Below are positions 25,208 through 41,877 of a stretch of 64,000 bases of DNA, piece by piece; the stretch's first letter is position 1, and the number at the start of each line of letters is the position of its first letter. The position numbers were made by a program, and so were the translations under genes. The notes beneath the pieces were generated by a model. It was not told where the DNA came from. It was given only the letters and a program-made list of their open reading frames with translations, and did not search any database. Origin of the DNA: an uncultured Leptospirales bacterium (GTDB lineage Bacteria > Spirochaetota > UBA4802 > UBA5550); contig CAZEPS010000001.1 in assembly GCA_964514165.1 (NCBI GenBank), positions 1,800-65,799 of the forward strand, written 5' to 3'.

Positions 25208-25230
25208 TACATGGGGTTGGTTACACGAAA

Positions 25231-26247: not shown

Positions 26248-26265
26248 TATTACCCCTGTTTTACA

Positions 26266-26295: not shown

Positions 26296-26419
26296 CGCAC
26301 CGGGCAGTGTCAACAATAATTGTTTTCAATTTTCACGAGACATGGCTGATGTCAAAACCGGACATCAGATTCCGGTAATCCTGAAACAGATCGCGAATAA
26401 ATTCATGGAGAAGCAACCA

Positions 26420-27538
26420 ATGAATATCGCCTTTAACGCCCGGGTGCTCAATGAACGGAAGGGTGGTCCCGCCCGGTATACACACGAGATACTGAGAGTA
26501 CTCGCGGGCAAGGATTTTATTAACACCTATTATATTTTCTGTTACGACGAACCGGAACTCGATTTTACCCTCCCCGGTAATTTCAGGATCAGGATACTCA
26601 AGCCCCGTTCCCGCATGATTTTTGACTACATACTACTCCCGGTTTACTCGTACCTTTACCGGATAGACCTTTTTTTCTTTCCGAAAAACACCTTCTCGCC
26701 CCTCATCAGGGGAAAAAAGGTTCCCTTTTTCAATGACATCGTCTATTTCGAGAAACTCGGTTTCCGGGAGTTTAAGTTCTTCGACAACCTCCACCATACC
26801 CTCATGGTGCCGGTGGCGGCCCGTTTTTCCTATATTAACCTATCCATCTCTGAATTCACCGCCTCCCGCATGACGGAACTCCTCGGAATTGACAGGGAGA
26901 TGATCAGGGTGATCCACCTCGGCATCGAGAAGCGGTTTCGAAAGATTACTGATATTTCCCTGCTCTCGGACACGGCGGAAAAATTCGGCATACATAAACC
27001 CTTTCTCTTTTACGCCGGTTCCCTGAGCCCGAGAAAAAACATGGCAAACATAATAAAGGCCTTCAGCCTCATCAAAAACCAGATCCCTCACTGTATATAC
27101 GTAACCGGCGGATATTCATGGCGCGACGACAGGGTCTTCGCCCTTATCAAAGAGAACAGGCTCGAGGATCGAATAATAAAACTCGGATTTCTCAGCGACG
27201 AAGAACTCATAGCCCTCTACAACATGGCGGACTGCTATCTCTATCCATCCATTTATGAAGGATTCGGCCTTCCGATCCTGGAATCCCAGGCCTGCGGCTG
27301 TCCTGTCATCACCAGCACCGTTTCGAGCTGCCCGGAAGTGGCAGGGGACGGGGCCTTTCTCGTCGACCCCTACGACGTAAGGGGGCTGGCCGACGCAATT
27401 GTACGGATCACCACTGACAGGAACTATCGGGAAGAACTCGTTGGCCGGGGATTCAAAAACGCATCCCGGTTTTCATGGGACCAGTCGGCCCGGGTCCTTC
27501 TCGATCTCATTGATGAGATTGAATCGGAGGAGAGGTAA
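26420..27538 (+). CDS. Glycosyltransferase family 4 (GT4)
   Basis: The C-terminal GT4 EX7E-type region YPSIYEGFGLPILESQACGCPVITS. The likely start is MNIAFNARVL at 26420. The track ORF begins at 26342. Confidence 0.8.
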   Translation: MNIAFNARVLNERKGGPARYTHEILRVLAGKDFINTYYIFCYDEPELDFTLPGNFRIRILKPRSRMIFDYILLPVYSYLYRIDLFFFPKNTFSPLIRGKKVPFFNDIVYFEKLGFREFKFFDNLHHTLMVPVAARFSYINLSISEFTASRMTELLGIDREMIRVIHLGIEKRFRKITDISLLSDTAEKFGIHKPFLFYAGSLSPRKNMANIIKAFSLIKNQIPHCIYVTGGYSWRDDRVFALIKENRLEDRIIKLGFLSDEELIALYNMADCYLYPSIYEGFGLPILESQACGCPVITSTVSSCPEVAGDGAFLVDPYDVRGLADAIVRITTDRNYREELVGRGFKNASRFSWDQSARVLLDLIDEIESEER

Positions 27539-28645
27539 TCAGGATTTTCCGCCGTATTTCCCCCGCCATTTTGCCGGATCAATCCTCTTCCCCATACGGC
27601 TGAAAACCCCGTCGAACAGGGCCCTGGTAAGAAGGTACAGACGCGCCGACTTGTGGTCATCGTTGAAAAGAAATACAGAAAGTGTTTTTACCGCGTATTT
27701 TTTCGGCAGCACGAATATCAGATACAGAAAAAATTTACGGGGGTAGTTTTTTTTGACAAAGTATATTTCGTTCCTGAAACCGTAATATCCCCATATGAGA
27801 AAATCATTGATGGTGGTGCGGCTCACCTTCCTGCCGAAAAAGGACTTTTCGATTCTCTTCCTCTCCGTGCTGGCCCCCTCCTTGTGGAGAACAACGCTTC
27901 CTGAGTTGACAAGGAGCCGGTACCCGGACTTCCTCGCCCTGTCGCACCAGTCGCTTTCCTCGTGATACATGAAATAGGTCTCGTCCATGAGGCCAATTTT
28001 CTCAATGACCTCCCGCTTTACCAGCATCGAGGCTCCAATGATTGAACGGGCCTCAAAAATGCCGGGGAGTTCGTCCGAATCCCTGATGCCGTCATACCTG
28101 CCGGTGCCGATCCCCTTCCAGCCGACTTTCTCGTTTCCCAGGGTCTGGACAAACCCCGGCTTATGGTAAAAGATGAGCTTGGATCCGATGATGCCGTTTG
28201 TTTTATCCGCCTCCCCGAGGAGGACCAGTTCACCAAGGGTATCTTCCCTCACGACAGTATCGTTGTTGAGAACCCAGCAGTAGTCCATGTCCCCCTTTGC
28301 AAGGGCGTACCGTATCCCGGTGTTGTTGCCGGCGGGAAACCCGCTGTTTTCACCGGCCTGGATGAACACCAGCGGAGCAATCATTGCATCAGTAAAGGTT
28401 CGTTCCTTTTCGGCAACAACCGAACTGTTCTCGGATTCGGATTTCTGATAGAAGACAAACGGGTATTCCCGTTCTTCGCAGAACGATATCATCTGTTCCA
28501 TAGAATCGTTCGGCGACAGGTTGTCAACGACCACAATCTGTAAATTATAATAAGAGTTCACCTTCTGCAGGCTCTCGATGCATTCCACCGTATCCTTCCA
28601 GCCCATGTAATTCAGGAGGATAATGTATACCTTCGAATCAGCCAC
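27539..28645 (-). CDS. Glycosyltransferase family 2 (GT2)
   Basis: N-terminal VYIILLNYMGWKDTVECIESL and a DxD-region pattern of GT-A fold GT2 enzymes. Confidence 0.7.
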   Translation of the reverse strand: MADSKVYIILLNYMGWKDTVECIESLQKVNSYYNLQIVVVDNLSPNDSMEQMISFCEEREYPFVFYQKSESENSSVVAEKERTFTDAMIAPLVFIQAGENSGFPAGNNTGIRYALAKGDMDYCWVLNNDTVVREDTLGELVLLGEADKTNGIIGSKLIFYHKPGFVQTLGNEKVGWKGIGTGRYDGIRDSDELPGIFEARSIIGASMLVKREVIEKIGLMDETYFMYHEESDWCDRARKSGYRLLVNSGSVVLHKEGASTERKRIEKSFFGRKVSRTTINDFLIWGYYGFRNEIYFVKKNYPRKFFLYLIFVLPKKYAVKTLSVFLFNDDHKSARLYLLTRALFDGVFSRMGKRIDPAKWRGKYGGKS

Positions 28646-28650
28646 CGGAC

Positions 28651-29580
28651 CTACCGTACCATGGTTCCGAGGTAAAATGCGAGGCGGTAGAGAAAACCCC
28701 TGCCGGCGAGGAGGTACTTCCGGTGTTTCAGGGCCGTCCCCAGGGCCCGGAGGTGAAGAATCCCACCTGTAAGGTCTTCGTAGAAGTCAAGGCGGTCTTC
28801 GATTATTTCCCGCTGTTCGGGGGTGAATCCGCCGTAGTTCAGCATACCCCTGGCGCTGTAGATCTCCCGGGTGAAACCCTCCCGTTTTTTGCGCCGGTAG
28901 TCGCCGATTTTTTTCATGATTGTCATCCTGGTTCCGGCGCCGGTGTCCTGTTCCGTGTGCTGACGGTACTTTATGAGTTTCTGGTCAAGGTATTTGACCC
29001 CCTCCAAAGAAGAAGCGATAAGGGCGAACCACCAGTCGTGGTACAGAAGCCCCGGAGGAACGGGCAGAGATGCTTCGGCCACCTCCCTGGTCATGAGGGA
29101 CGTGCAGCCCGTTACGAAATTTCTGAACACGAAGAACCTGAACTGGTCATCGGTGTCGGCGTAACTGCCCGATTTTTCCTGGAGAGATAGGGGAAGGATG
29201 TCACCATGCTCATCGATGAGTTCGGCGTCGGAACAGATAAGGGAACAGCCGTTGATTCCCTCCAGGAGGGTTTCAATTTTATGGGGCAGCCAGATGTCGT
29301 CCTGATCGGCCAGAGCGATAAAATCACCGGTGCACCGTGCCACAGCCGCCTCGAAGTTTTTGACAAACCCGAGATTTTTTTCATTAACTGCGAATTTCAG
29401 TTTGCGGGTTTTCCGGTATTCCTCGAGAATCTCGACCGTATCGTCATAGGAACCGTCGTCGTTGACGACCACCTCGAGGTTCCGGTATGTCTGGCCGTAA
29501 ATGGAATCGAGCTGTTTTCGTAAAAACCTGCCCCCGTTGTAGGTGGCCATGGCCACGGAAACGAGTGTATCCCCCTCCAT
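28651..29580 (-). CDS. Glycosyltransferase family 2 (rhamnosyltransferase-like)
   Basis: VSVAMATYNGGRFLRKQLDSIYGQTYRNLEVVVNDDGS is the classic GT2 N-terminus with a DDGS motif. Confidence 0.8.
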   Translation of the reverse strand: MEGDTLVSVAMATYNGGRFLRKQLDSIYGQTYRNLEVVVNDDGSYDDTVEILEEYRKTRKLKFAVNEKNLGFVKNFEAAVARCTGDFIALADQDDIWLPHKIETLLEGINGCSLICSDAELIDEHGDILPLSLQEKSGSYADTDDQFRFFVFRNFVTGCTSLMTREVAEASLPVPPGLLYHDWWFALIASSLEGVKYLDQKLIKYRQHTEQDTGAGTRMTIMKKIGDYRRKKREGFTREIYSARGMLNYGGFTPEQREIIEDRLDFYEDLTGGILHLRALGTALKHRKYLLAGRGFLYRLAFYLGTMVR

Positions 29581-29582: not shown

Positions 29583-30653
29583 TTAACGCTTCCCGTAATT
29601 CTTTTCAATCCATTCCCGGTATTCGCCGCTTCTGAGCCGCTCGACCCACTCCTCGTTTTCCATGTACCAGCGGATTGTCTCGTCAAGGCCCCGGGAAAAA
29701 TCATAATCCTGCTTCCACTGGAGTTCATTCTTTATCTTATCGCAGTTGATGGCGTATCTCCGGTCATGGCCGGGCCTGTCAGTGACATAGGTGATGAGCT
29801 TTATGTAATAGTCTTTTTCTTTTCCCTGGAAGTCTGCCATTTTCTCGCAGAGGACATTCACCAGTTTTATGTTCTCCCACTCGTTCTCGCCGCCGATATT
29901 GTAGGTTTCCCCGTTTCTACCACGCTGTAAAATCATCCACACCCCGGAATTGTGGTCATCCACGTAGAGCCAGTCCCGTATGTTCCGCCCGTCGCCGTAC
30001 ACCGGCAGGGGCTTCTCCTCTTTCATGTTCAGTATCATCAGGGGAATAAGCTTTTCCGGGAACTGGTAGGGGCCGTAATTGTTCGTGCAGTTCGATATGG
30101 TTACCGACAGGCCGTAGGTGTGATTATAGGCCATGACCAGGTGATCAGAAGAGGCCTTTGACGCTGAATAGGGGCTCCTGGGGTCGTAGGCTGTGTCTTC
30201 GTAAAAGTAACCGGTTTCGCCGAGGGAACCGTACACCTCATCAGTGCTGACGTGATGGAAATGGGTATCCTTTCGGTCCTTCCAGAGCTCCCGGACAATT
30301 TCCAGGAGGGTAAAGGTGCCGATTATATTGGTCTGGATGAATTCCCGGGGGCCGAATATTGACCGGTCAACGTGTGATTCCGCCGCAAAGTGAACAATCG
30401 TGTCAATATCATGTTTTATGAAGATGTCTCTCATCGTTTCATATTCCACGATATCTGCGTGTTCAAAAACATAGCGTTCTCCGCCGTATTCCTCTTCGAT
30501 CCCGGAGAGGTTCTCCGGGTTACCGGCGTAAGTAAGCTTGTCCACGTTGACAATTTTTCCCGCAAAATCCGTCTTTTTGAAAAGATAGTGTATGAAATTT
30601 GAACCGATAAAACCGGAGCCGCCGGTTACCAGCAGATTCTCGAGTTTTCTCAC
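29583..30653 (-). CDS. rfbB: dTDP-glucose 4,6-dehydratase
   Basis: LVTGGSGFIGSNF Rossmann motif and YSASKASSDHLV catalytic YxxxK region, at 356 aa. Confidence 0.9.
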   Translation of the reverse strand: MRKLENLLVTGGSGFIGSNFIHYLFKKTDFAGKIVNVDKLTYAGNPENLSGIEEEYGGERYVFEHADIVEYETMRDIFIKHDIDTIVHFAAESHVDRSIFGPREFIQTNIIGTFTLLEIVRELWKDRKDTHFHHVSTDEVYGSLGETGYFYEDTAYDPRSPYSASKASSDHLVMAYNHTYGLSVTISNCTNNYGPYQFPEKLIPLMILNMKEEKPLPVYGDGRNIRDWLYVDDHNSGVWMILQRGRNGETYNIGGENEWENIKLVNVLCEKMADFQGKEKDYYIKLITYVTDRPGHDRRYAINCDKIKNELQWKQDYDFSRGLDETIRWYMENEEWVERLRSGEYREWIEKNYGKR

Positions 30654-30684
30654 GATACCCCTCCACTCTGTTGTTTCTTTAGGG

Positions 30685-30809
30685 AACCTCTATTTATTAA
30701 ATATGAGGTTACCGTTTGGGTACGCAATATGGTTTAAATGTTACAGAGCCTTGATTAATCAAGGCCCTATAACTTTGTTAGATGTACCCTTTAATTGCAC
30801 AATTAATTC
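30685..30809. repeat. Copy of the composite intergenic repeat between rfbB and rfbD, overlapping the rfbD stop
   Basis: It contains an AACCTC-14 nt-GAGGTT hairpin, TTTGGGTACGCAATATGG, an 18-bp perfect palindrome GCCTTGATTAATCAAGGC that includes the rfbD stop codon, and TTAGATGTACCCTTTAATTGCACAATTAA. The last block encodes the final 11 aa of RfbD. Confidence 0.65.
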
Positions 30810-31646
30810 TTCAAGGGCCTCCTGCCAGGGCCTGATAGTTATTCCCAGGGATTCCCTTATTTTATCTTTGGACATGTACGAGTTTTTCGGCCGTGCCGCT
30901 CTGGTCGGATAGTCATCGGTCGTTATCGGAACAAGATTCACCTTACGGGAAACCAGACCGTGTTTCCGCGCCAGGGAATAAATCTCCCGTGCGAACTCGT
31001 ACCAGTTCGTTCTCCCCGCGTTGGTGAAATGATAAATCCCGTACCGGTTGAAATCTCTTTTAATGATATCGAGTATCGTTGCCGAAACATCCGCCGCGCA
31101 GGTCGGGCTTCCCCACTGGTCGCTCACGACCCGTACATCGTCCCGTTCGTTAAAAAGCCGGATCATGGTATACACGAAATTATTGCCATGAATGCCGAAA
31201 AACCAGGATATCCGAAAAATAAAAAAGTCTGTTAGTAATTCACGAACCTGTTCCTCTCCCCGGAGTTTGCTCAGCCCGTAAACCCCTTTCGGCCCGGTCT
31301 CATCGGTCTCGACATAGGCCCCTTCCTTCTCCCCTGAAAATACATAATCGGTAGAGACATGTACCAATTTCGTATTTTTCTCTTTCGCGATTTTCGCGAT
31401 ATTTTTTACCCCGTGTTCATTTATTTGAAAAGCGGCTTCCGGTTCATCTTCCGCTTTGTCAACCGCGGTGTAGGCCGAACAGTTTACTATCCAGGAAATG
31501 CTTTTATCCGAACTGAAGTTCATTAATTCATCATAATCGGTTATGTCAACCTCCCTGTCCGATGAAACATGTTTTAGTCCCGCCTCTTTAAGGCCAAGTT
31601 CCACCTCAGTTCCGAGCATCCCCCTGCTGCCGATGAGCCATATCAT
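30759..31646 (-). CDS. rfbD: dTDP-4-dehydrorhamnose reductase
   Basis: MIWLIGSRGMLGTEV N-terminus, about 295 aa, RmlD pattern. The last ~11 codons and the stop overlap a copy of the intergenic repeat family. Confidence 0.85.
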   Translation of the reverse strand: MIWLIGSRGMLGTEVELGLKEAGLKHVSSDREVDITDYDELMNFSSDKSISWIVNCSAYTAVDKAEDEPEAAFQINEHGVKNIAKIAKEKNTKLVHVSTDYVFSGEKEGAYVETDETGPKGVYGLSKLRGEEQVRELLTDFFIFRISWFFGIHGNNFVYTMIRLFNERDDVRVVSDQWGSPTCAADVSATILDIIKRDFNRYGIYHFTNAGRTNWYEFAREIYSLARKHGLVSRKVNLVPITTDDYPTRAARPKNSYMSKDKIRESLGITIRPWQEALEELIVQLKGTSNKVIGP

Positions 31647-32191
31647 TGAAACACCTCAGCATTCGCCAGAAACGGGAGCTTCCCGTCTTTTTCTGAGACC
31701 AGTGGATTTTCAATCTCCCAGTCCACGTTGATATCGGGATCATCCCACCTGATTCCCCGTTCCAGGTCCGGAGCGTATTCGTCTGTGCACTTGTAGAGTA
31801 AATGCACGTCGTCAGTGAGGGTCAGAAACCCATGGGCGAATCCCGGAGGGACATACATCATCAGGCTGTTCTCTGCAGTCAGCCTTTCACTGACCCACTG
31901 AAGAAAGGTGGGAGAGTTTTTCCTGATATCCACCGCCACGTCGAGCACGGCACCTTTTATCACGCGTACCAGTTTCCCCTGGGCCATTGGAGGCAGCTGA
32001 TAGTGGAGTCCCCTGAGAACGTTTTTTTGAGAGTAGGAGTGATTGTCCTGGACAAAGGCGGCATCGATGCCGTTCTTCGCGAAATCGCTCTTCTTGTATG
32101 ATTCGAGAAAGAACCCTCTCCCGTCAGGGAACACACGGGGTTCGATAAGAATCACGTCCTCTAACGCAAAGCTCCTGAAGGTAAAGGGCAT
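31643..32191 (-). CDS. rfbC: dTDP-4-dehydrorhamnose 3,5-epimerase
   Basis: 182 aa cupin. RGLHYQ...KLVRVIKGAVLDVAVD matches RmlC. Confidence 0.9.
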   Translation of the reverse strand: MPFTFRSFALEDVILIEPRVFPDGRGFFLESYKKSDFAKNGIDAAFVQDNHSYSQKNVLRGLHYQLPPMAQGKLVRVIKGAVLDVAVDIRKNSPTFLQWVSERLTAENSLMMYVPPGFAHGFLTLTDDVHLLYKCTDEYAPDLERGIRWDDPDINVDWEIENPLVSEKDGKLPFLANAEVFQ

Positions 32192-32192
32192 G

Positions 32193-33071
32193 TTATCCCT
32201 CCATCTCCATTACTTTCAACAGGTACTCGCCATAGCCGGACTTGAGCAGGGGGTCGGCAAGGTCCCGCAGTTCATCAGCGTTAATGTATCCCATCTTATA
32301 GGCTATCTCTTCAATACACGAGATCTTCAAGCCCTGCCGGTCCTCGATTGCCTTGACAAAACTAGAGGCTTCATGCATGGAAGCGTGGGTCCCGGTGTCG
32401 AGCCAGGCGAACCCCCTTCCCATGAGTTTGACCCGAAGCCGGTTTTTCTCCATGTAGGTCGTGTTGATGTCGGTAATCTCAATCTCCCCCCGGGGCGACG
32501 GTTTCAAGGATTTCGCTATTTGAACCACGTCGTTGTCGTAAAAATACAGACCGACCACGGCATAGTTTGATTTCGGCTTTTCCGGCTTCTCTTCAATGGA
32601 TGTTACACTGCCGTTTTTATCGAACGCCACGACACCGTACCGCTCAGGGTCTTTCACGAAGTAGCCGAACACAGTTGCCCCTTCCTTCTGTGAAGCAGCT
32701 TCCCGGAGCAGTTCCGGAAGCCCGTGGCCGTAAAACAGGTTGTCACCGAGTATCATGCACACTGAATCATTTCCGATGAATTCATCGCCGATTATAAAGG
32801 CGTCCGCCAGACCCCTCGGGTATTCCTGTACCCGGTATGTCAGGCTGATACCGAATTTGTTTCCGTTACCAAGAAGATTTTCGATACGCGGGGTGTCCTC
32901 AGGTGTAGAGATAATGAGAATATCCCTGATCCCCGCCAGCATAAGTGTCGAAAGGGGATAATAGATTGTTGGTTTATCGTACACCGGAAGCAGCTGTTTG
33001 CATACAACCTGCGTCAGGGGATAGAGCCTTGTGCCGGACCCGCCGGCGAGAATTATTCCTTTCATGTGCAC
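32193..33071 (-). CDS. rfbA: Glucose-1-phosphate thymidylyltransferase
   Basis: [18 protein letters not shown] at the N-terminus. The exact start codon is uncertain: the first codon of the track ORF or the ATG two codons in. Confidence 0.9.
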
Positions 33072-33123
33072 TCCTTCGCAACAGTATTAGTTATTAAAGT
33101 TTTTCTACAACTCAATTACATTT

Positions 33124-34413
33124 TTAAATAGATACGGCATTGCTGTTTTTATTTTTGTTATTTAAAACCAAAGGAGCATAAAGTACAAAAAGAAAAAACA
33201 AATCCTCAATCCAAAAAAAAGTAAAAAAAAGCATATCTTCAAAGAAACTGTAAACTAAAAATGATAAAACAATTCCTGCAAGTATTCTATAATGCTTATT
33301 CTTAAAACCTAAGACCATAATATATGTTATAACTGAAATAAATACGATTGATGCAATTATACCATAACGGCCCCATGTTTCCAGGATTACATTATGTAAA
33401 GAAGTTAACTTCAGTACCAGGATATTTGTTTTTGCAGCGTAACCCTTTCCAAATAAAAATTTTATTATATCAAAATTATTAAACTGATCCTTCAAAAAGA
33501 TTATCCAGATATCAATTCTTTTCGAGCTACCGGTCTTGAGTGTTTTTTCAATTATTATATCCAGTAATCCAGTACGGATAATACCAGCTATAAAAATCAG
33601 GAATATAGCTGATAATAGGATGAAAAACCATTTCTTATTGAAAATTTCTTTTATATCGTTAAATAATATGAATAAAACAACAATTGAAAAAATAAAACTT
33701 GAAAGAATACAATTACGGCAACGGGACACCAGAATAAAAATAATAAAAATACAGGAATGAAGAAAAAACAAAATCGATATCATGTACCCTTTTTTAATTT
33801 TATAATACATGAATAAAGATGTAGAAGACAAAAAACCAATTAATAACGAATATCCAAATCTATTAGGATTTATAGGAATTCCAAAATTATTTTTATTATT
33901 TATCAGTACAATAAACTCATTAACGGATTTAGAAGCAGCCAAACTGTTTATATCAGGAATAATAATTAATAATATGTTTAAAATTGAAATTATAAATACC
34001 GTGTATAAGATAATGATTAAAAACTTTTTATCTTTATGTATAATCCAAAAAGAAGAAATACATAAATAAGAAAACCCAATTATTAATGGCTCTACAATAT
34101 TAACATATAACTGTTCCCCGCTCAATATTCCAGAAAAAATCATCAAGGTAATAAATACAAAGATCAGTTTTTCATCAATTCTAAATGTTAAACCATTCCC
34201 ATAAATTCTATGAACAAAGAATGATATCAATATTGCAAATATTGCAAGTTTAAAACCTTTATACAAAACATTGTTATTAATAATTGCAGGTAACGTGAAA
34301 AGATAGGAAATAAATAACAACGAAATCAGTAATGAAATAACAATTATATCATTATAGAATAGATTGAAGAGTTTATCTAAATAATTATACTTAATTTTTT
34401 TAATCATTGTCAT
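33124..34413 (-). CDS. Polytopic membrane protein, probable O-antigen polymerase/ligase (Wzy/O-antigen ligase-like)
   Basis: 429 aa with about 10-12 TM helices and a larger periplasmic loop, in a very AT-rich and evidently foreign-composition segment. No conserved motif, so the call rests on topology and locus context. Confidence 0.5.
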   Translation of the reverse strand: MTMIKKIKYNYLDKLFNLFYNDIIVISLLISLLFISYLFTLPAIINNNVLYKGFKLAIFAILISFFVHRIYGNGLTFRIDEKLIFVFITLMIFSGILSGEQLYVNIVEPLIIGFSYLCISSFWIIHKDKKFLIIILYTVFIISILNILLIIIPDINSLAASKSVNEFIVLINNKNNFGIPINPNRFGYSLLIGFLSSTSLFMYYKIKKGYMISILFFLHSCIFIIFILVSRCRNCILSSFIFSIVVLFILFNDIKEIFNKKWFFILLSAIFLIFIAGIIRTGLLDIIIEKTLKTGSSKRIDIWIIFLKDQFNNFDIIKFLFGKGYAAKTNILVLKLTSLHNVILETWGRYGIIASIVFISVITYIMVLGFKNKHYRILAGIVLSFLVYSFFEDMLFFTFFWIEDLFFLFVLYAPLVLNNKNKNSNAVSI

Positions 34414-34576
34414 AAACTTAATAATGCACTTATTTTGGTATCTACTCAGCTATTGCTGAATAGATGTACATTTTTATAAAAATTGGCTATATAACTCTTT
34501 TTCATGTAATGTGCACATAATTGCACATAGCTGAGTAATTACTTATTCTGTATATATCTAAATGTATCAGGATTAT

Positions 34577-35458
34577 TTACCTGTGAAGACCCTCGAACTT
34601 TCCAAATTTTCCCTTTTTGAAATCAATATAGCCCTGTATAATAGAACTGATTTTTTTTAATTTATCTTTTTCAAACAGAACAATCTTACTGAATTCATAG
34701 AAGAAAGCCTCAATTTGCTCTTTTTTATATTGCGGAAACTCATTTTGATATAATTTCGATACATGACATGCATTTCTCGTTATATAATATCTTCTTCTGG
34801 GTGAATGGTTAGTTGTTACCTGAGGTCTACAAAATAGATTGTGATGTGTGATATTACCGAGATTGTGATCCATAATCACTGCATTTACCCTGAGTACATG
34901 ATATCTATTACTATGTAGACGCAAACAATATTCATCATCAACTTTATCAATAAAAAGCTGATTACAATATCCTCCAACCTTTGAGTAAATATCCAGGTTT
35001 ACCAGATTACCGGACGTCAAGACGCAAAGCTGTTCTTCAACTTCCTTTTCTGGCACCTGTGTGTATGAGTTATCACTGGGGAATGGGGCCATTACTCCGA
35101 CATTATTTAGATTATAACTATATTTTTCTGTATAATAAACTAGATTATTAACCGTATTTTTCCTTAACCTGCTATCCTGATCCATAGTCAACATATAATT
35201 ATATCCCCTGTCAATGGCCAGTTGAGCTCCTGTATTCAAAGCAGCGGCGATACCAATATTCTCATTATTTCTATGTACGATTACTCTTTCATGTTCCGCT
35301 ATTGATAGTAACGATTCTGGAACAGGACCCTCAGTATTATCAATAACAATAAGCAGATCTATCTGATCAATATACGTATTAACAATATCAGGAAAATCAT
35401 CAGCAGGCTGAAAAGTTACCACTACACCACAGATTTTTTGTTTAGATACATTCATCAT
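34577..35458 (-). CDS. Glycosyltransferase family 2
   Basis: ICGVVVTFQPADDFPDIVNTYIDQIDLLIVIDN, with DxD downstream. GT-A fold. Confidence 0.75.
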   Translation of the reverse strand: MMNVSKQKICGVVVTFQPADDFPDIVNTYIDQIDLLIVIDNTEGPVPESLLSIAEHERVIVHRNNENIGIAAALNTGAQLAIDRGYNYMLTMDQDSRLRKNTVNNLVYYTEKYSYNLNNVGVMAPFPSDNSYTQVPEKEVEEQLCVLTSGNLVNLDIYSKVGGYCNQLFIDKVDDEYCLRLHSNRYHVLRVNAVIMDHNLGNITHHNLFCRPQVTTNHSPRRRYYITRNACHVSKLYQNEFPQYKKEQIEAFFYEFSKIVLFEKDKLKKISSIIQGYIDFKKGKFGKFEGLHR

Positions 35459-35643
35459 AGTACCAGTACATTTTTTTGTGCAAATTTTTACAAATGGTTC
35501 CTCTATATGATAGCGTCAAGAAAGATTTACAATGCATATTATAATTGACAATTACTGGTATCATGCGGGAAGGAAAAAATACTTGCATTTCATATGTTTA
35601 GGAAAATCCTATCCATTTAAATAAGAGAAACGGCAATTTTTCC

Positions 35644-37269
35644 ATGCTTTTTAATTCATTACAATTCATGCTTTTTTTCCCGGCAGTAGTAATTATTTAC
35701 TATCTGCTCCCGTACCGATGGCGGTATCTCCACCTGCTGTTCGCCAGCTATTTCTTTTACATGAGCTGGGAACCAGGCTATGCGATATTAATTTTTATTA
35801 CAACAGTTATTGTGTATACCACCGGCATCGCCATGCATGGAAAATCAAAAGCTGTCAAACGGCGACTGGTGGCCCTGAGTATCGTATCCAATCTCGGAAT
35901 CCTCTTTACTTTCAAGTATTTTAATTTTTTCAGCAGTAATTTTAACAACCTTTTCTCGTTTATGGACCTTAACCTGACATTTCCCTATCTCAAATTTCTC
36001 CTCCCAGTGGGGATTTCATTTTACACCCTTCAGGCACTGAGTTATACAATCGATTTATATCGCGGTGACAGGGAACCGGAACGCCATTTCGGTATATTCG
36101 CCCTGTATGTCAGTTTTTTTCCCCAGCTTGTGGCCGGTCCCATCGAGCGGTCAACTAGGCTGATGCCCCAGTTTCATGAGAAATTTGATTTTGACTATAA
36201 CAGGGTCGTAGACGGACTTAAAATAATGGCCTGGGGTTTCTTTAAGAAACTGGTTGTAGCCGACCGTTTGGCGCAATATGTCGATATCGTTTATAATAAT
36301 CCTCAGGCCCATGAAGGCGGTGTGCTGGTCATAGCCACCTATTTCTTCATATTTCAGGTCTATTGCGACTTTTCAGCCTATTCTGACATAGCTATCGGAG
36401 CAGCCCAGGTCATGGGTTACCGGCTCATGGACAATTTCAAACGGCCCTATCACTCGAAAAGTATAGCTGAACTGTGGCAGCGGTGGCATATCTCTCTGAC
36501 ATCATGGTTTAGAGATTACGTGTATATACCCCTCGGGGGAAACAGGGTATCCGAGTTACGGTGGAACATCAATATATTGATTGTATTCGTGCTCAGCGGC
36601 CTGTGGCATGGAGCTGAATGGACCTTTGTTGTGTGGGCCTCCCTGAACGGTATCTTTACCATTATCGGATTCTACACGGCCAAAAATCGAAAGGCATTAA
36701 AAGACCGGCTCTTCAATATTCTCATTACCGGAAACACGGTACTGGTAGCCGGGGTTGGTCTTGCTGCTGTATTATTTGGCGTCGTTACGAATGAAATCGG
36801 CCTCAGCGCGGATGTCGGTATTAATATAAAGAAGATATTCTTCCTGCTCATCGGATCCTTCATTATTTTTTCAACTATCGGAAAGTTTGTAAACAGAGAT
36901 TTCATCTCAGCTTCTATCGAAAATGTTAAAAAACTTATCAGTATCCTCATCACCTTCCATCTTTTTACCATAGCCGGTGTATTCTTCAGGGCTAAATCGA
37001 TACAGGACGGCTGGTATATAATAACCCATTCTTTCAGCAGGAACTGGGACAACCTTAGACTCGCCTTCAGCAAGACGGATTTTTTCTACATGTTTCTCTC
37101 AATAATCATAATGGAAGGATTTCATGTTATCCAGAGCCATGGAAGCATCCGCCAGATGCTCAGAAACAAGCCCCTGATCATTCGCTGGATATTTTATTAC
37201 CTCCTCATCCAGTCGATCATTCTCTACGGTGTATTTGAGGAGAAACAGTTTATCTATTTTCAGTTTTGA
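35644..37269 (+). CDS. MBOAT-family membrane O-acyltransferase (AlgI/DltB/PatA-like)
   Basis: Polytopic, with the conserved MBOAT His region WQRWHISLTSWFRDYVYIPLGGN and a second WHGAEW. Confidence 0.8.
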   Translation: MLFNSLQFMLFFPAVVIIYYLLPYRWRYLHLLFASYFFYMSWEPGYAILIFITTVIVYTTGIAMHGKSKAVKRRLVALSIVSNLGILFTFKYFNFFSSNFNNLFSFMDLNLTFPYLKFLLPVGISFYTLQALSYTIDLYRGDREPERHFGIFALYVSFFPQLVAGPIERSTRLMPQFHEKFDFDYNRVVDGLKIMAWGFFKKLVVADRLAQYVDIVYNNPQAHEGGVLVIATYFFIFQVYCDFSAYSDIAIGAAQVMGYRLMDNFKRPYHSKSIAELWQRWHISLTSWFRDYVYIPLGGNRVSELRWNINILIVFVLSGLWHGAEWTFVVWASLNGIFTIIGFYTAKNRKALKDRLFNILITGNTVLVAGVGLAAVLFGVVTNEIGLSADVGINIKKIFFLLIGSFIIFSTIGKFVNRDFISASIENVKKLISILITFHLFTIAGVFFRAKSIQDGWYIITHSFSRNWDNLRLAFSKTDFFYMFLSIIIMEGFHVIQSHGSIRQMLRNKPLIIRWIFYYLLIQSIILYGVFEEKQFIYFQF

Positions 37270-37276
37270 GGGAACT

Positions 37277-38305
37277 ATGGGCTTACGAAGATTTATTGTA
37301 AATGCTACTATTCTCGTGATAATTTCACTGGGCCCCCTGGCCATGTATAATTTATATATGGATACGTTTGTTGTGTTCCGTAAAGATTATTCAGGCCATA
37401 AGAACGTTGCTAACCAGCATTACCTGAAGATAAAACACCTGCTCGACAACAAAACAAAGTATGACTCATACCTGTTCGGATCATCAAAAGTCGGCAGAAC
37501 CGAATGCTGCATGGTCCCATACGGAGAATGGTATAACATGTCCTATTCCAAAGGAGTCCCCCTTGATCATTTAAATGACCTGAAACTTATGCTCAGAAAA
37601 GGGGTACATGTTAAAAACGTACTCATCGGAATAGACATGCTCTCATACAAAATCAATCCCTATGAAAATTATACCCAGGCACTATGGAAACCCTACCCTG
37701 AAACACTCTATGAAAAATTAGAGTTTTTTATCAGTTACCTGTTGCTGAAACCGGTTGGCAAACTATTCGTTCAGAAAAAAACTGAAATGGTGTTTTTCGA
37801 TCGGTACCAAACCGGTGTCCTGTTCAATCCCGAAATTGATGCTAATATCGAAAAAAATCTTGAAAAACACATAAACGCTGACTATTTCAATGAAGGCTGG
37901 ACAACCGCAGGAGACAGGGTTAAGAAAACTCTTAATGAAATCAGGGAAATCCTGGAACTATCCGAACAACATGGTATTACATGCAAGATCTTCCTGAATC
38001 CTGAACATCCAAAAACATACATAGATAACGGGGTAGATCAGTTCTATAAGTTCAAAAAAGGTCTCGCAATGCTGACAGATTACTGGGATTTCAGCGGTAT
38101 TGACAGTATCTCAACCAGCAATTATTATTTTTATGAAACACTCCACTACCGTCCCATGGTGGGTACAATGATGATGGAGATCATGTTTGATCTTGAAAAG
38201 AAAACCGCACCTGCTGACTTCGGGTCTTATGTAACCAGTGAAACCATTGATGAGCACATAAACCGGCAGAATTCAGATCTCAGCACATACCTTTCATCAC
38301 AATAG
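37277..38305 (+). CDS. Periplasmic partner of the MBOAT acyltransferase (DltD/AlgJ/AlgX-like), putative
   Basis: N-terminal TM anchor and FGSSKVG, a possible SGNH/DltD-like Ser motif. Position immediately after the MBOAT gene, overlapping its stop. Low sequence certainty. Confidence 0.4.
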   Translation: MGLRRFIVNATILVIISLGPLAMYNLYMDTFVVFRKDYSGHKNVANQHYLKIKHLLDNKTKYDSYLFGSSKVGRTECCMVPYGEWYNMSYSKGVPLDHLNDLKLMLRKGVHVKNVLIGIDMLSYKINPYENYTQALWKPYPETLYEKLEFFISYLLLKPVGKLFVQKKTEMVFFDRYQTGVLFNPEIDANIEKNLEKHINADYFNEGWTTAGDRVKKTLNEIREILELSEQHGITCKIFLNPEHPKTYIDNGVDQFYKFKKGLAMLTDYWDFSGIDSISTSNYYFYETLHYRPMVGTMMMEIMFDLEKKTAPADFGSYVTSETIDEHINRQNSDLSTYLSSQ

Positions 38306-38311
38306 AATTAC

Positions 38312-39772
38312 ATGAAAAACAAACAGCGACTTTTCATCAATTCCATCTTCATGACCTCTGCCACTCTGTTCGAAAAATTAATTTTTTTCATAGCAACAAT
38401 GATAATAGCACGGTATCTCAGTGCGGAACAATACGGTGAATATGCAACAGCCCTTGGAATAGCAACTTTTTTCGGACTCATTTCAAATCTCGGTATAGCC
38501 GGCACTGCGATTCGTGCAATAAACCTGAAACCGGAATTCGAGGACCAGTACTATTCAAGCATCCTCGTCCTGAAGACTTTCCTGTCACTGGTCATTTATG
38601 GAGGCCTCCTCGGCTATCTTGCTCTCGCTTCATTCATGCAGTTCTATAACACTGATCCGGTCAGGAATAAAAGCGTCATTATTCTCACCGTAATATTCGG
38701 GCTCGTCAGGCTGTCCACAGAATTTATCCAGACAACCTACTCCCTGTTTGAAGCAAAGGAAAAATTCAAACTTATATCCGGAGCGTTGGCCCTTTTTTCA
38801 ATATTGTATATAACAGGCACACTCATAGTGGTTCTCTACAGGGGCGATTACTTTGATATAGTTTCCGTAAGACTCGGTATTAATGTCATATTCATGCTCG
38901 GAATCCTTTATACACTGACTAAATTTTATACGTTCAACTTCAAGCTAAAGAACCTGAAAATATTTCTAATCGAGTCCATACCTTTCTCACTGACATTTAT
39001 TTTCGCCAATGTCATCATCAACACCAGTATATTTCTTTTACCGGTTATACATGAAACAGTGTATGCGGGATATTACCAGAATGCCTTTCTCTTCTATATA
39101 TCAATTTCTTTTATACCCATCAGCATGGCCAAGGTACTCCTCCCGTTCCTGTTTAAGTTCAAATTTGACGTTAATCCAGATAAGTTTCAATTCGCCTTCA
39201 AAATTTATTCCAAGTTTTTCAGTATCGTATCGTTTTTTTTCGTTATCATCTTCTTTATCTTTTCCCATGAACTAATCACCTACATTTTCGGCGATAAATA
39301 CAGTGAATCCATACCCGTACTGCAGGTCTTCGCCCTGGCTGTCCCCTTTTCCTCAAACCCGGCGCCGTGGATAATAACGACCCTTGACAAGCAGGAATAT
39401 AATTCCCTGATTAACGGGATTGCAGCAGTGATAAACATAATAGCCAATATATTACTTATCTGGTATTTCAAGGCTGAAGGAGCGGCAGCAGCAATGGTTA
39501 TAACCTTTGCCGTGATTTACCTCCTGTCCCACATCTATCTGGTCAAGAATGGATATGTCAGGTATACCCCTGTTTTTCTTATGCGCCTGAAGCTTTTAAT
39601 CACAGTTGTCTGTATCTACCTGGCCAACAGTTTTATTTTTCAAGATATGTTTTTCATCATCCCCCTGGCCGTTTCCGTACTGGTTTACCTTGCCGTTGTC
39701 TATGTATTCATAATGGAAAAGGATGATTTCAGAATTATACGGGAAACCCTTCCCCTGAACAGGGGTGAATGA
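38312..39772 (+). CDS. wzx: Polysaccharide biosynthesis protein / oligosaccharide flippase (Wzx, MOP superfamily)
   Basis: 486 aa with about 12-14 TM helices and the typical PST-family length and topology. Confidence 0.7.
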   Translation: MKNKQRLFINSIFMTSATLFEKLIFFIATMIIARYLSAEQYGEYATALGIATFFGLISNLGIAGTAIRAINLKPEFEDQYYSSILVLKTFLSLVIYGGLLGYLALASFMQFYNTDPVRNKSVIILTVIFGLVRLSTEFIQTTYSLFEAKEKFKLISGALALFSILYITGTLIVVLYRGDYFDIVSVRLGINVIFMLGILYTLTKFYTFNFKLKNLKIFLIESIPFSLTFIFANVIINTSIFLLPVIHETVYAGYYQNAFLFYISISFIPISMAKVLLPFLFKFKFDVNPDKFQFAFKIYSKFFSIVSFFFVIIFFIFSHELITYIFGDKYSESIPVLQVFALAVPFSSNPAPWIITTLDKQEYNSLINGIAAVINIIANILLIWYFKAEGAAAAMVITFAVIYLLSHIYLVKNGYVRYTPVFLMRLKLLITVVCIYLANSFIFQDMFFIIPLAVSVLVYLAVVYVFIMEKDDFRIIRETLPLNRGE

Positions 39773-39773
39773 C

Positions 39774-40460
39774 ATGGTTTACGGTGTTATATTGTCCGGT
39801 GGATCCGGCAGGAGAATGAACGCCCCCATGCCGAAACAGTTTCTCGACCTTGGTCACATGCCGGTTATCGGATGGTCGATAAAAGCATTCCGGGATCATC
39901 CTCTTATTGACGGCCTGGTTATCGTGAACCATCCGGAATACCGGGACACCCTGCAGCAGGTAATCGATAAACTGCATGTTTCCAATTACTGTGTTATCGT
40001 TGACGGCGGCCACACGAGACAGGACTCATCGTACAACGCAGTCACATCAAGGCAATTCCGTGAAGACGATATTCTTCTCATTCATGATGCCGCGCGTCCC
40101 TTCATCACTGACGAACTCATAACACGATGTATAGAAAAGACCAGGGCCAACGGTGCGGCAGGTGTATATGTATCTGCAATAGATACTATCGCACAGATAA
40201 ATAATGGGTTTGTCGAATCCATACCGGACAGGAACATACTTTACCATACTCAAACACCGCAGGGATTCGTGTATGCACCCTTACTGAAAGCCCACAGGAA
40301 CGCGAAGAAGAATAACCTGACCGGTATTTCCGATGATATCTCCCTCCTGTTGAATGACGGTCAGCGGGTCGCTACAATAGCCGGCGATTACCGGAATATT
40401 AAGATAACGAATGTACAAGACCTTGCCTATGCCAGATTTCTGATTACTCACCAGCAGTAA
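39774..40460 (+). CDS. IspD/TarI-family cytidylyltransferase (2-C-methyl-D-erythritol-4-P or ribitol-5-P cytidylyltransferase)
   Basis: VILSGGSGRRMNAPMPKQFLDLGHMPVIGWSIKAF N-terminus. By context (last gene of the polysaccharide locus) a CDP-alditol/CDP-sugar role is as likely as isoprenoid IspD. Confidence 0.7.
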   Translation: MVYGVILSGGSGRRMNAPMPKQFLDLGHMPVIGWSIKAFRDHPLIDGLVIVNHPEYRDTLQQVIDKLHVSNYCVIVDGGHTRQDSSYNAVTSRQFREDDILLIHDAARPFITDELITRCIEKTRANGAAGVYVSAIDTIAQINNGFVESIPDRNILYHTQTPQGFVYAPLLKAHRNAKKNNLTGISDDISLLLNDGQRVATIAGDYRNIKITNVQDLAYARFLITHQQ

Positions 40461-40947
40461 AACTGATCCACGTTTTTACCATGAATAGGAACCTTTTCTA
40501 TCAAAACTGAACACCGCTGTGAACACCGCTAATATTACCCGTAAGATGATATACATCGATTAATAAGCATCTTCCGGATGCAACCCCCTTAAAAAAACTT
40601 GACATTAAACTGACTGAAACTTTCCATTACGGAACACTTTTCCCAGAAGGAGCAAATAATGACTGGTTGCAGTTACAGTACATTATTTTATTTTGTCACT
40701 AACGGAGGAATCACGATCAGGCATAAGATCATGGCCAGTAGTGTCATTAATCCGACCAAAACAATCGCCAGCTCCAGCAAGATAATCGAAAATATATCAT
40801 GCGAAGACGGGGAACCTGCCTCAATCACGAGGATGTACCCTGTCAGTGTCTCTCGGATATGGCCTGTCGCCAAGCCTCTTTCATCAGTTATTTCACCGGA
40901 TCAAGCAGGACATCACGTATCAGGAACCCAGCAGTCAATATAGATAA

Positions 40948-41877
40948 ATGAAGATTTATAACGATATTCCTGAAAACAAGAATCTTTTTAACAATCCAGT
41001 CGTAACCATCGGAACCTTTGACGGAGTCCACATCGGCCATCAGAAAATACTGAAAAAACTGCGGGAATCTGCAGATGCCCTGAACGGCGAAGCTGTTGTA
41101 ATCACATTTTCCAACCATCCGAGAAAAGTCCTCTTTCCAGATCAATCAACAAGGATCCTGACTACCTCTGAGGAAAAGGTCAAAGCAATCTACGGATTCG
41201 GCGTGTTAAATATCATTCTTCTCGACTTTACCCCGGACATGGCGAACATGACAGCCCATGATTTCTATTCTGGAATTTTATTGAAGAAACTCGACCTCAA
41301 GGGCATAGTAATAGGATACGACCACGCCTTCGGAAGGGACCGGGAGGGGAATTACGATTACCTGAAAAAAATTACCGGAAATGCCGGAATCACTTTAACC
41401 AGGGTGGAAGAGGAAGACTTCCACACCTATCCCGTTTCATCCACCTGGATACGCAACGAAATTGAATATGGCAGAATCCGAAGGGCGAACACCCTTCTCG
41501 GAAGGCCCTATTCATTGAAGGGAAGGGTCACCAGGGGGGCCGGAAGGGGACGAAAACTTGGCTTTCCCACTGCCAACATCGTGCCAGAAAATCCGGATAA
41601 AATCATACCCGGTGACGGTGTATACGCGGTTACTGTTTTGCTGGATGACAGAACCGGGAAGAATGGCATGATGAATATCGGGATTAATCCCACCTTCCAG
41701 TATCGGGGAAGATCTCTTGAAGTGAATATTTTTGATTATGATAATACCCTTTATGACAGAGATATTGACGTCAGTTTTCACGCCAGAATAAGGGATGAAA
41801 TCCGGTTCAGCTCAATTGATGATCTTATTGCGCAGATGAATATTGATAAACAGAGTGCCTTGAAAGTACTTGGATAA
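40948..41877 (+). CDS. ribF: Bifunctional riboflavin kinase / FMN adenylyltransferase
   Basis: VVTIGTFDGVHIGHQKIL (the FAD synthetase HxGH motif) and the C-terminal riboflavin kinase PTANI...GVY region. Confidence 0.85.
   Translation: MKIYNDIPENKNLFNNPVVTIGTFDGVHIGHQKILKKLRESADALNGEAVVITFSNHPRKVLFPDQSTRILTTSEEKVKAIYGFGVLNIILLDFTPDMANMTAHDFYSGILLKKLDLKGIVIGYDHAFGRDREGNYDYLKKITGNAGITLTRVEEEDFHTYPVSSTWIRNEIEYGRIRRANTLLGRPYSLKGRVTRGAGRGRKLGFPTANIVPENPDKIIPGDGVYAVTVLLDDRTGKNGMMNIGINPTFQYRGRSLEVNIFDYDNTLYDRDIDVSFHARIRDEIRFSSIDDLIAQMNIDKQSALKVLG

Follow-up and report, generated by a model that had tools for sequence, protein, structure and literature searches.

A putative Wzx/Wzy surface-polysaccharide locus in an uncultured spirochaete with a strongly AT-rich core and a central segment that probably recombined between species

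The 64-kb stretch of DNA analysed here (the window) carried a set of polysaccharide genes at about 24.3-40.5 kb. An fcl-like epimerase gene, gmd, a GT1 gene and two GT2 genes (24317..29580) were located next to the dTDP-rhamnose pathway genes rmlB, rmlD, rmlC and rmlA, which lay on the minus strand (29583..33071). On the same strand were a gene for a 429-aa polytopic enzyme of the Wzy_C superfamily, a candidate repeat-unit polymerase (33124..34413), and the AT-rich GT2a gene encoding a rhamnosyltransferase-like GT2 protein (34577..35458). A divergent intergenic region with a GC content of 0.30 (35459..35643) parted this GT2a-wzy-rml transcription unit from a plus-strand unit that encoded an MBOAT acyltransferase (35644..37269), its membrane-anchored partner (37277..38305), a Wzx-type flippase (38312..39772) and an IspD-family cytidylyltransferase (39774..40460). 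The ispD gene started 1 nt past the wzx stop codon; with the GTG at 39,765 as start codon, the two genes would overlap by 8 nt. The right flank was ribF (40948..41877, plus strand). Genes for Wzz/PCP, an initiating phosphoglycosyl transferase or polysaccharide export were not seen in the 64-kb window.

The gene identities proposed in the initial annotation were borne out. GT2a matched PF00535 with 38.4 bits and reached 125.5 against TIGR01556, under the cutoff of 200.55. The flippase belonged to the Polysacc_synt/MOP family (PF01943, 58.4 bits; PF13440, 49.2 bits). The product of ispD scored 190.6 against TIGR00453 (cutoff 181.3) and 167.1 against the ribitol-5-phosphate cytidylyltransferase family NF001183 (cutoff 166). 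The 541-aa MBOAT protein (PF03062, 84.5 bits) was of the PatA/AlgI type, with catalytic His322 in a WHG motif and a C-terminal end, FIYFQF, that fits the FXYXXF acyl-shuttle motif as defined previously (PMC12148441). Its partner of 342 aa had an N-terminal transmembrane helix and an SGNH fold, with the invariant residues S70 (in FGSS), H290 (in SHYR), D29, N46 and Y86. An FXYXXF-type MBOAT gene preceded the partner homologue in 43 of 47 metagenomic loci.

This pair resembled PatA/PatB, AlgI/AlgJ/AlgX and WssH/WssI (PMC12148441) in the catalytic His, the extra C-terminal helices and the terminal FXYXXF of the MBOAT protein, as well as in the neighbouring membrane-anchored SGNH-fold protein and the position of the pair within a polysaccharide locus. 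However, the partner family had no sequence match in Pfam, NCBIfam or PDB, including to PatB, AlgJ/AlgX or DltD, and carried its own conserved motifs FGSSR, YNMSY, DFSG and SHYR. There was also a likeness to DltB/DltD of teichoic acid D-alanylation, since DltB was the best PDB sequence match of the MBOAT protein (E = 8e-24) and the partners were N-terminally anchored in both systems. On the other hand, no DltA, DltC or DltX genes accompanied the pair among the central locus genes examined, the dltB model TIGR04091 gave a score of 132 (cutoff 375), and the shuttle motif was fused to the MBOAT protein, as in acyl-CoA-using systems.

The initial annotation had described the whole interval from 33.1 to 39.8 kb as a five-gene island of about 30% GC. 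We did observe a sharp fall in GC at ~33.07 kb, within the rmlA/wzy intergenic region, but this level held only for a core of 2,572 bp (33072..35643; about 28% GC, 0.284; 300-nt windows 0.22-0.39) made up of GT2a and the wzy-like gene together with three intergenic regions that were also AT-rich. The GC content was 0.412 for 35,644-39,772, and the mean over 33,100-39,800 was 0.364 versus 0.481 in the remaining window. Against 52 background ORFs of the window (GC3 0.598 +/- 0.067, minimum 0.416), the wzy-like gene (GC 0.247, GC3 0.237, z = -5.4) and GT2a (GC 0.340, GC3 0.282, z = -4.7) were clear outliers, and a CAI-like index with the window as reference agreed (z = -5.8 and -5.4). In contrast, the MBOAT, partner and wzx genes had 39-43% GC, all less than 2.5 SD off the background, with GC3 z values of -1.1, -2.2 and -1.5 (-1.1 for ispD) and CAI-like z values, ispD included, of -0.8 to -1.8. 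Thus, the island shrank to wzy and GT2a, 2.6 kb in all, and the other three genes were compositionally near ispD and ribF. Normal composition of the flanks was confirmed for rmlABCD, whereas ispD and ribF were slightly low (GC3 0.50-0.52). The proposed Ile/Lys/Asn/Phe bias appeared as an Ile/Phe/Leu/Asn bias of the wzy-like protein (I 18.6%, F 11.9%), but this did not account for the low GC3: the polytopic membrane proteins CcmF, CcmC and CcmB of the same window retained GC3 of 0.62-0.68. Elsewhere in the 64 kb, no ORF of at least 100 aa had a GC content below 0.39 except one short ORF (43,139-43,444), which was probably non-coding.

A different boundary emerged from the comparison with the sister species (GCA_054919795.1), based on sliding nucleotide identity and per-gene synonymous divergence. 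A block of 7.6 kb (33050..40700) showed 84-94% nucleotide identity versus ~73% in both flanks, with steps at 33.05 kb and ~40.7 kb, and the synonymous divergence dropped about six-fold across exactly this interval. From wzy to ispD, the pooled pS was 0.301 and dS was 0.38 (0.35 for ispD), while ten flanking genes pooled from both sides were synonymously saturated (pS 0.724), the rml genes and ribF (pS 0.745) among them. Individual genes ranged within 0.27-0.36 in the block and 0.63-0.81 in the flanks. The baseline was ~11 kb of flank: ccmA/B, fcl, gmd, the glycosyltransferase genes and rmlBDCA to the left of the block, and ribF to its right. A 250-nt window covering most of the divergent intergenic region (35,500-35,749) was 90% identical. 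Within the block, GT2a was a mosaic: its C-terminal 143 codons had a pS of 0.34, and its N-terminal 150 codons, encoding the GT-A half, formed a divergent patch (35009..35458, minus strand; pS 0.73) with 66-71% nucleotide and 56-66% amino acid identity. The proposed swapped cassette was supported as a probably exchanged central segment, but its right end moved from 39.8 kb through ispD to ~40.7 kb.

No cassette replacement was seen between these two closest species, since both carried the same genes and the same GC dip. More distant spirochaete relatives kept rmlBDCA but had other genes between rmlA and ispD. A family-level relative (L009) had rmlBDCA, a GT2 gene, a methyltransferase, the MBOAT and partner genes, a second inverted partner-MBOAT pair and then ispD, with neither wzy nor wzx in this locus. 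In another relative (L012), the order was ispD, rmlBDCA, GT4, GT2, a Wzy_C gene, a methyltransferase and wzx; identities were 36% for Wzy_C and 44% for wzx, and the GC content of the centre was 0.33-0.44 versus 0.48-0.58 in its own flanks. Because L009 had both MBOAT and partner as well as a GT2a homologue at the same position, these genes were long-term residents of the locus rather than new cargo. Among GTDB species genomes, the nearest GT2a homologue (48% identity) came from a related spirochaete MAG, in syntenic position. The L009 orthologue had a host-like GC3 of 0.59, so low GC was not intrinsic to the GT2a family; with the nearest relative being a syntenic spirochaete gene of host-like GC, import from a distant low-GC phylum was not demonstrated. 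No donor was found, and beyond the sister species the nearest Wzy_C relative was 37% identical and belonged to a related spirochaete locus. Horizontal exchange was supported by the divergence step and the differing centres of the relatives, not by the base composition. Neither tRNA nor integrase genes nor meaningful flanking repeats were found at the locus, so homologous recombination was the likely route.

We therefore considered it probable that this is a Wzx/Wzy surface-polysaccharide locus whose central 7.6 kb recombined between species. The flanks, not the block, could be the outliers. Genes of the rml group are frequently exchanged and the flank comparison covered only ~11 kb, and thus the block might be vertical, with the two species differing genome-wide by a dS of ~0.35 and the rml, glycosyltransferase and ccm genes as well as ribF replaced in one lineage by DNA of a farther relative. 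Two separate imports, one on each side of the centre, would be required, because both flanks were saturated, including the housekeeping genes ccmA/B and ribF. Moreover, amino acid distances to the sister species, scaled to the L009 outgroup distance, were uniform over seven flank genes (0.58-0.86; rml and GT2b/c) versus 0.09-0.30 for MBOAT, partner and ispD, so gene-specific rates did not account for the step, and we regarded a vertical block as quite unlikely. A chimeric contig joining a centre and flanks from different populations was extremely improbable. Although the source was a metagenome-assembled genome and AT-rich, strain-variable regions mis-assemble easily, the block was not ~100% identical to the sister species and hence was not its sequence pasted in. 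One NCBI and four Logan assemblies of the sister species had the same gene order and GC step, its junctions were found in four independent assemblies, and the breakpoints lay in intergenic spacers with the reading frames intact.

A further rival reading concerned the AT-richness of wzy and GT2a, which might not mark a donor. Both could be old residents in which it was maintained locally, for instance by selection for rare codons and low polymerase expression or for bound or silenced AT-rich DNA. The GT2a N-terminal patch was synonymously saturated and still AT-rich in each species (GC3 0.29 and 0.35), so its composition was perhaps maintained and not merely inherited from a donor. The syntenic spirochaete homologue of GT2a, the lowered GC of the L012 Wzy_C homologue and the wide occurrence of low GC among wzx and wzy genes (PMC3715488, PMC9736851) are consistent with this. 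However, the GT2a orthologue of L009 had host-like GC3, and Wzx and MBOAT, equally hydrophobic and encoded in the same locus, were not AT-rich. Gene content also varied among relatives, with wzy absent from L009, which indicated that gain or loss occurs. Local maintenance was thus unlikely. For the 429-aa protein, the topology check suggested in the initial annotation returned a WaaL/Wzy_C fold, and neither fold nor motif told Wzy from WaaL. The protein belonged to the Wzy_C family, although its Pfam score alone was below the gathering threshold. The secondary structure of the model had about twelve transmembrane helices and a large loop near the C-terminus bearing conserved Arg residues and the His of an HX10G motif (H340-X10-G351); R233, K290, R299, W303 and G322 were unchanged throughout the family. 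It was the sole candidate polymerase in this Wzx-bearing locus, and it is wzy rather than waaL that is typically AT-rich and extremely divergent in sequence. Wzy-beta, a proven inverting polymerase, also has a Wzy_C domain with an essential His in HX10G and essential Arg residues (PMC4815439). In contrast, R233, R299 and H340 were spaced similarly to R191, R265 and H313 of the solved ligase (PMC10920833), the Pfam family bears the name 'O-antigen ligase', and L012 had a second, Pfam-less ORF of 381 aa, hydrophobic judging by a few sequence fragments, that was possibly the true polymerase there. We therefore favoured a polymerase, and a WaaL-type ligase or PglL-type O-oligosaccharyltransferase that attaches the glycan, once flipped, to a protein, to lipid A-core or to a different lipid was a possible but doubtful alternative. 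The arrangement of helices and loop was shared with WaaL (7TPG/7TPJ, CAZy GT121) and Wzy-beta of Pseudomonas aeruginosa (clan GT-C1), but sequence similarity to the solved chains was not detectable, and unlike waaL the gene sat with wzx and specific glycosyltransferases, not with core-oligosaccharide genes.

In the proposed pathway, GT2a and the flanking glycosyltransferases would assemble a lipid-linked repeat unit of a glycan probably containing rhamnose and a 6-deoxyhexose. Wzx would flip it across the membrane, and on the outer face the Wzy_C protein would link the units in an inverting reaction that depends on His and Arg. The acyl group would most likely be acetyl, taken from acetyl-CoA; the MBOAT protein would load it on the Tyr of its FIYFQF tail and hand it to the SGNH partner for O-acylation of the polymer. 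Long after their split, the two spirochaete species may have exchanged the region 33.05-40.7 kb, or each may have acquired it from a common pool. The route would be homologous recombination, with one breakpoint in the rmlA/wzy spacer and the other in the ispD/ribF spacer; the direction and the donor of such a transfer are presumptive. The foreign AT-rich composition, confined within the block to wzy and GT2a, would go back further, to low-GC alleles of a pool not yet sampled, and the N-terminal half of GT2a may be a separately diverged allele segment.

Low-GC-centred Wzx/Wzy rfb and cps clusters that recombine through conserved flanks are described for O-antigen loci of Salmonella and E. coli and for Leptospira rfb (PMC3715488, PMC9736851). 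As in O-antigen and capsule clusters, conserved rmlBDCA lay beside a variable centre of wzy, wzx and specific glycosyltransferases, wzy exceeded all other genes in AT-richness and divergence, mobility genes were absent, and divergence among relatives was mosaic. Unlike them, the host was an uncultured Spirochaetota lineage, strong AT bias was confined to two genes, the exchanged block included an ispD-family gene, and genes for Wzz, an initiating transferase or export were missing from the window. Exchange of an AT-rich centre is the textbook pattern for surface-sugar clusters, not a new kind of system.

The polysaccharide locus occupied approximately 24.3-40.5 kb by Pfam and NCBIfam, with the cytochrome-c maturation genes to its left. 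Its first half consisted of an fcl-like epimerase, Gmd, a GT1, two GT2 genes, rmlB, rmlD, rmlC and rmlA. The second half contained the gene for a 429-aa wzy-like protein (33,124-34,413, minus strand), another GT2 gene (GT2a; 34,577-35,458, minus strand), the MBOAT gene (35,644-37,269, plus strand), the gene for a 342-aa partner protein (37,277-38,305, plus strand), wzx and an IspD-family cytidylyltransferase gene, and was followed by ribF. The Wzx call of the initial annotation was borne out, because both PF01943 (58.4 bits, cutoff 28.2) and PF13440 (49.2 bits, cutoff 23) scored above their thresholds, indicating a flippase of the MOP superfamily/Polysacc_synt type. GT2a passed the threshold only for the generic GT2 model PF00535 (38.4 vs 23.3), and its assignment as a TIGR01556 rhamnosyltransferase was rejected since the score of 125.5 was below the curated cutoff of 200.55. 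The IspD-family gene (39,774-40,460) scored above the cutoffs of both ispD (190.6 vs 181.3) and ribitol-5-phosphate cytidylyltransferase (167.1 vs 166). A gene of this family also adjoined the polysaccharide loci of more distant spirochaete relatives, namely L009 (13,842-14,528) and L012 (3,091-3,767, both in their own coordinates); it started 1 nt past the wzx stop in the window, and the L012 copy was split into two ORFs. Its product may be a polysaccharide-pathway enzyme instead of, or besides, the MEP-pathway IspD or a hitch-hiking housekeeping gene.

The initial annotation described 33.1-39.8 kb as an AT-rich (~30% GC), likely horizontally acquired core of this locus; its observation was confirmed in part and its interpretation was supported in part. 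Against a window background of ~0.48-0.50, GC in 1-kb windows was 0.277 and 0.271 at 33-35 kb, 0.363 at 35-36 kb and 0.40-0.45 up to ~45 kb. In 300-nt windows, the drop started at ~33.0-33.15 kb, and the values were 0.22-0.39 up to ~35.7 kb and 0.35-0.48 from there to 39.8 kb. The dip and its sharp left edge were real, but the 30% level spanned 2.6 kb and not 6.7 kb: GC was 28.4% at 33,072-35,643, 41.2% at 35,644-39,772, and 36.4% over the whole interval of the initial annotation. At the gene level, the only strong GC3 outliers relative to the 52 other ORFs of the window (0.598 +/- 0.067) were wzy (GC 0.247, GC3 0.237, z = -5.4) and GT2a (GC 0.340, GC3 0.282, z = -4.7). The GC and GC3 values were 0.431 and 0.526 for the MBOAT gene, 0.396 and 0.449 for the partner, 0.404 and 0.497 for wzx, 0.479 and 0.524 for ispD, and 0.445 and 0.497 for ribF. 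A window-referenced codon index gave the same split, with the other central genes much nearer to the background. Deviant composition and codon usage were found for 33,072-35,643 only (z = -4.7 to -5.8), and the deviation was weak at 35.6-39.8 kb (z = -0.8 to -2.5). Hydrophobic amino-acid content did not explain the dip since CcmF, CcmC and CcmB from the same window had GC3 of 0.62-0.68; with Wzx and MBOAT included, the range was 0.50-0.68, and the idea that low GC reflected membrane proteins was ruled out.

Low-GC stretches were also seen to the right of the locus. A 381-aa protein encoded at 41,976-43,121 (minus strand) had the lowest GC among the background genes (0.39), a hydrophobic N-terminal stretch by reading and no Pfam or NCBIfam match. 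It was followed by a 436-bp AT-rich intergenic region (43,122-43,557, GC 0.31) upstream of an ECF sigma factor gene (Sigma70_r2/r4_2), which together with a gene for a FecR-domain anti-sigma-like protein occupied 43,558-45,358. A second mildly low-GC stretch (47,596-50,030, GC 0.41-0.43) encoded a TPR protein with a C-terminal Mrr/NACHT-associated restriction-endonuclease-like domain and a 343-aa protein without a family match.

The sister species (GCA_054919795.1, together with Logan assemblies of runs SRR33304587-91) had an identical locus gene order and the same GC dip (wzy 0.261, GT2a 0.369, flanks about 0.50). Thus, the cassette replacement expected at this locus was not observed between the two species. 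Their nucleotide identity, on the other hand, changed in steps along the locus: it was ~73% at 23.0-33.0 kb, 86-90% from ~33.05 kb, 66-71% at 35.0-35.5 kb and 84-94% at 35.5-40.5 kb, and it returned to 73% in ribF. According to the Nei-Gojobori estimates, wzy, MBOAT, partner, wzx and ispD pooled had a pS of 0.301 (dS 0.38) vs a saturated 0.724 for ten flanking genes, a baseline from only ~11 kb of flank. Sub-gene windows located the breakpoints in two spacers, rmlA/wzy (52 bp) on the left and ispD/ribF on the right. The latter (40,461-40,947, 487 bp) contained a 94-aa ORF that was called as a 100-aa gene in the sister species, was poorly conserved and had no family match. GT2a itself was a mosaic, with a pS of 0.34 in the C-terminal 143 codons and 0.73 in the N-terminal 150 codons. 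Its N-terminal GT-A half (35,009-35,458) had 56-66% protein identity to the sister copy, and residues 150-250 had 94-96%; such an allele mosaic within the gene could change the donor-sugar specificity between the two species.

The most economical reading of this pattern was that the two lineages would have come to share a 7.6-kb segment, from wzy to ispD, long after their split. Window-sister amino-acid distances scaled to the outgroup L009 were 0.09-0.30 for MBOAT, partner and ispD and 0.58-0.86 for the rml genes and the two further GT2 genes; therefore, gene-specific rates did not explain the step. An assembly chimera was rejected as an explanation. It was quite improbable that the flanks rather than the block were imports, since this would need two bracketing events, although in its favor the baseline divergence was taken from those same ~11 kb. 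Homologous recombination was the proposed route of the segment sharing because we found no tRNA genes in the window, no integrase or transposase annotated among the ORFs examined in the locus, and only short, chance-level repeats at the block borders; promoter and terminator scans at these borders were uninformative. Horizontal acquisition of the core held up with respect to the divergence incongruent with the flanks and the patchy presence among relatives, where wzy and wzx were missing from L009. It also held up with respect to composition, at 33,072-35,643 only, but not with respect to mobility signatures, which were not found.

At greater depth, the gene content of the locus centre varied. 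The syntenic locus L009, from a Spirochaetes MAG, had the order GT2, GT2, rmlBDCA, GT2, methyltransferase, MBOAT, partner, a second inverted partner-MBOAT pair and ispD, and lacked wzy and wzx. Its homologues of GT2a (GC3 0.59), MBOAT and partner had 48%, 56% and 51% identity to those of the window, respectively. In L012, ispD was located beside rmlBDCA, followed by a GT4, a GT2, a Wzy_C gene (36%), a methyltransferase, wzx (44%) and a GT1 (61%), and GC was 0.33-0.44 in the centre vs 0.48-0.58 in the flanks.

As for the origin of the AT-rich pair, a search for a low-GC donor through GT2a did not identify one: the best matches outside the lineage had 43% identity (a Fibrobacteria MAG) and then 36% or less. 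The best wzy relative outside the sister species had 37% identity and was found in L012. Moreover, the N-terminal patch of GT2a was saturated between the two species, yet AT-rich in both (GC3 0.29 and 0.35). Our preferred reading was that AT-rich alleles had been drawn repeatedly from a pool that has not been sampled. An argument from an amelioration clock was dropped since the dS of the block, at only 0.38, left it no power. The synonymous saturation of an AT-rich segment can also be taken to mean that the AT-richness of wzy and GT2a was actively maintained, for example for throttled translation or silencing of the polymerase operon, and was not a fading donor signature. Maintenance, which we nevertheless considered unlikely, would also fit with the normal GC of the closest GT2a relative, a syntenic gene in a related spirochaete, and with the host's own GC3 of ~0.6. 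If it were true, the classic reading of polysaccharide loci, in which low GC means foreign, would be wrong here.

Wzy polymerises Und-PP-linked repeat units and is encoded alongside wzx and unit-specific glycosyltransferases, while WaaL (GT121) attaches the glycan to lipid A-core and is usually encoded among core-oligosaccharide genes. The Wzy_C superfamily is placed in CAZy clan GT-C1, which takes in O-ligases, inverting polymerases and SEDS proteins. The 429-aa protein had a polytopic GT-C(B) fold resembling WaaL and SEDS proteins, but matched Wzy_C (PF04932) weakly, at 19.3 bits (E = 0.001) vs a gathering score of 31.7. A word-based homologue search returned only the protein itself and the sister copy, and it took an exhaustive HMMER search through 1.84 billion representative proteins to reach 41 relatives. 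Each of the 29 relatives that were aligned had a Wzy_C match with an E-value of 0.01 or lower (best 1.5e-13). In this family, R233 and R299 were invariant and H340 and G351 were at least 90% conserved, the latter two forming an HX10G motif (H340-NVILETWGRY-G351); these residues were located in or beside a large loop (residues 283-350) near the C-terminus. The Arg/His motifs were defined according to Wzy-beta of P. aeruginosa, a proven inverting polymerase (HX10G/Arg; PMC4815439), and WaaL (Arg191, Arg265 and His313; PMC10920833). The conserved Arg and the HX10G His were common to both enzymes when compared by motif rather than residue by residue: PDB sequence searches with the Wzy_C family profile and two other Wzy_C proteins gave no usable match, so that a residue-level alignment to WaaL was impossible. 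Fold and motif together suggested an enzyme that acts on an Und-PP-linked glycan by an inverting mechanism, and did not separate an inverting polymerase from a ligase. Since the locus encoded Wzx and four glycosyltransferases but no candidate polymerase other than the 429-aa protein, context favored a polymerase, which we predicted as the probable function, with a ligase as the less likely alternative. Within the 64-kb window, there was neither a Wzz nor any lipid A or core gene in view. The L012 locus, in addition to its Wzy_C gene, had a Pfam-less 381-aa ORF (15,112-16,257, GC 0.325) in which a few sequence fragments looked hydrophobic. This ORF may be a putative membrane protein and could be the true polymerase of that locus, which bears on the question of ligase or polymerase; on comparison, it had no homology to the window's 381-aa ORF at 41,976-43,121.

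The 541-aa MBOAT protein was well supported by PF03062 (84.5 bits, cutoff 27), and its best PDB sequence match was DltB (E = 8e-24). The catalytic His, which is conserved in all MBOATs, was His322 within LSGLWHGAEW, and the C-terminus read FIYFQF, conforming to the FXYXXF acyl-shuttle motif as defined for PatA, where the motif Tyr is auto-acetylated from acetyl-CoA and the acetyl is handed to the SGNH protein PatB (PMC12148441). The same C-terminal motif was present in the MBOATs of the sister species, L009 (both copies) and Muricauda. The adjacent partner was an extracytoplasmic SGNH-fold protein whose start was likely the ATG at 37,277, 8 nt past the MBOAT stop; the sister-species gene also encoded 342 aa. 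Neither Pfam nor NCBIfam returned a model for it at E up to 0.01, it had no PDB sequence match, and a PDB search with the family profile gave no usable hit. The 43 proteins of its family, all annotated as 'hypothetical', came from Spirochaetes, Flavobacteriia and Lachnospiraceae. Candidate residues for a Ser-His-Asp catalytic triad were S70 (FGSS), H290 (SHYR) and D29, all invariant, and the nearly invariant D271, as read from the alignment rather than from the geometry of a model. Forty-seven metagenomic loci extended far enough upstream of the partner homologue; in 43 of them, the ORF directly before it was on the same strand and had an FxYFxF-type motif at its end, and WH[G] was also present in 42 of these ORFs. 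The sister species and a Muricauda genome likewise had the MBOAT-then-partner arrangement, and L009 had it twice. The two L009 pairs (8,367-13,562) were oriented tail to tail. The plus-strand pair measured 541 and 354 aa, and the minus-strand pair, which occupied the place of the window's wzx, measured 485 and 345 aa; both MBOATs ended in FxYFxF.

The partner was previously described as DltD/AlgJ-like. An MBOAT-SGNH pair was indeed present, but membership of the DltD family was rejected: there was no DltD profile match, and the likeness was at the fold level only. Similar to the PatA/PatB type, the pair combined an MBOAT domain with its catalytic His, a fused FXYXXF motif and an adjacent SGNH-fold protein. 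In contrast to the Dlt system, the locus genes examined gave no Dlt-family matches in Pfam or NCBIfam, so that no Dlt-type genes accompanied the pair, and the shuttle motif was fused to the MBOAT. Because of these two differences, the pair was predicted to be of the acyl-CoA-using type.

Taken as a whole, this was an ordinary, if nicely resolved, case of a recombining polysaccharide locus. It extended to an uncultured spirochaete lineage the known pattern of surface-polysaccharide evolution, in which conserved sugar-nucleotide genes surround a recombining AT-rich centre with mosaic alleles. Base composition alone misplaced the boundaries, since the exchanged unit was three times the length of the AT-rich part. 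Additionally, a previously unannotated, Pfam-less SGNH-fold family was defined in Spirochaetota, Bacteroidota and Bacillota, encoded almost always directly after a PatA-type MBOAT. In annotation, members of this family could usefully be named as the transferase component of a protein pair for polysaccharide O-acylation.
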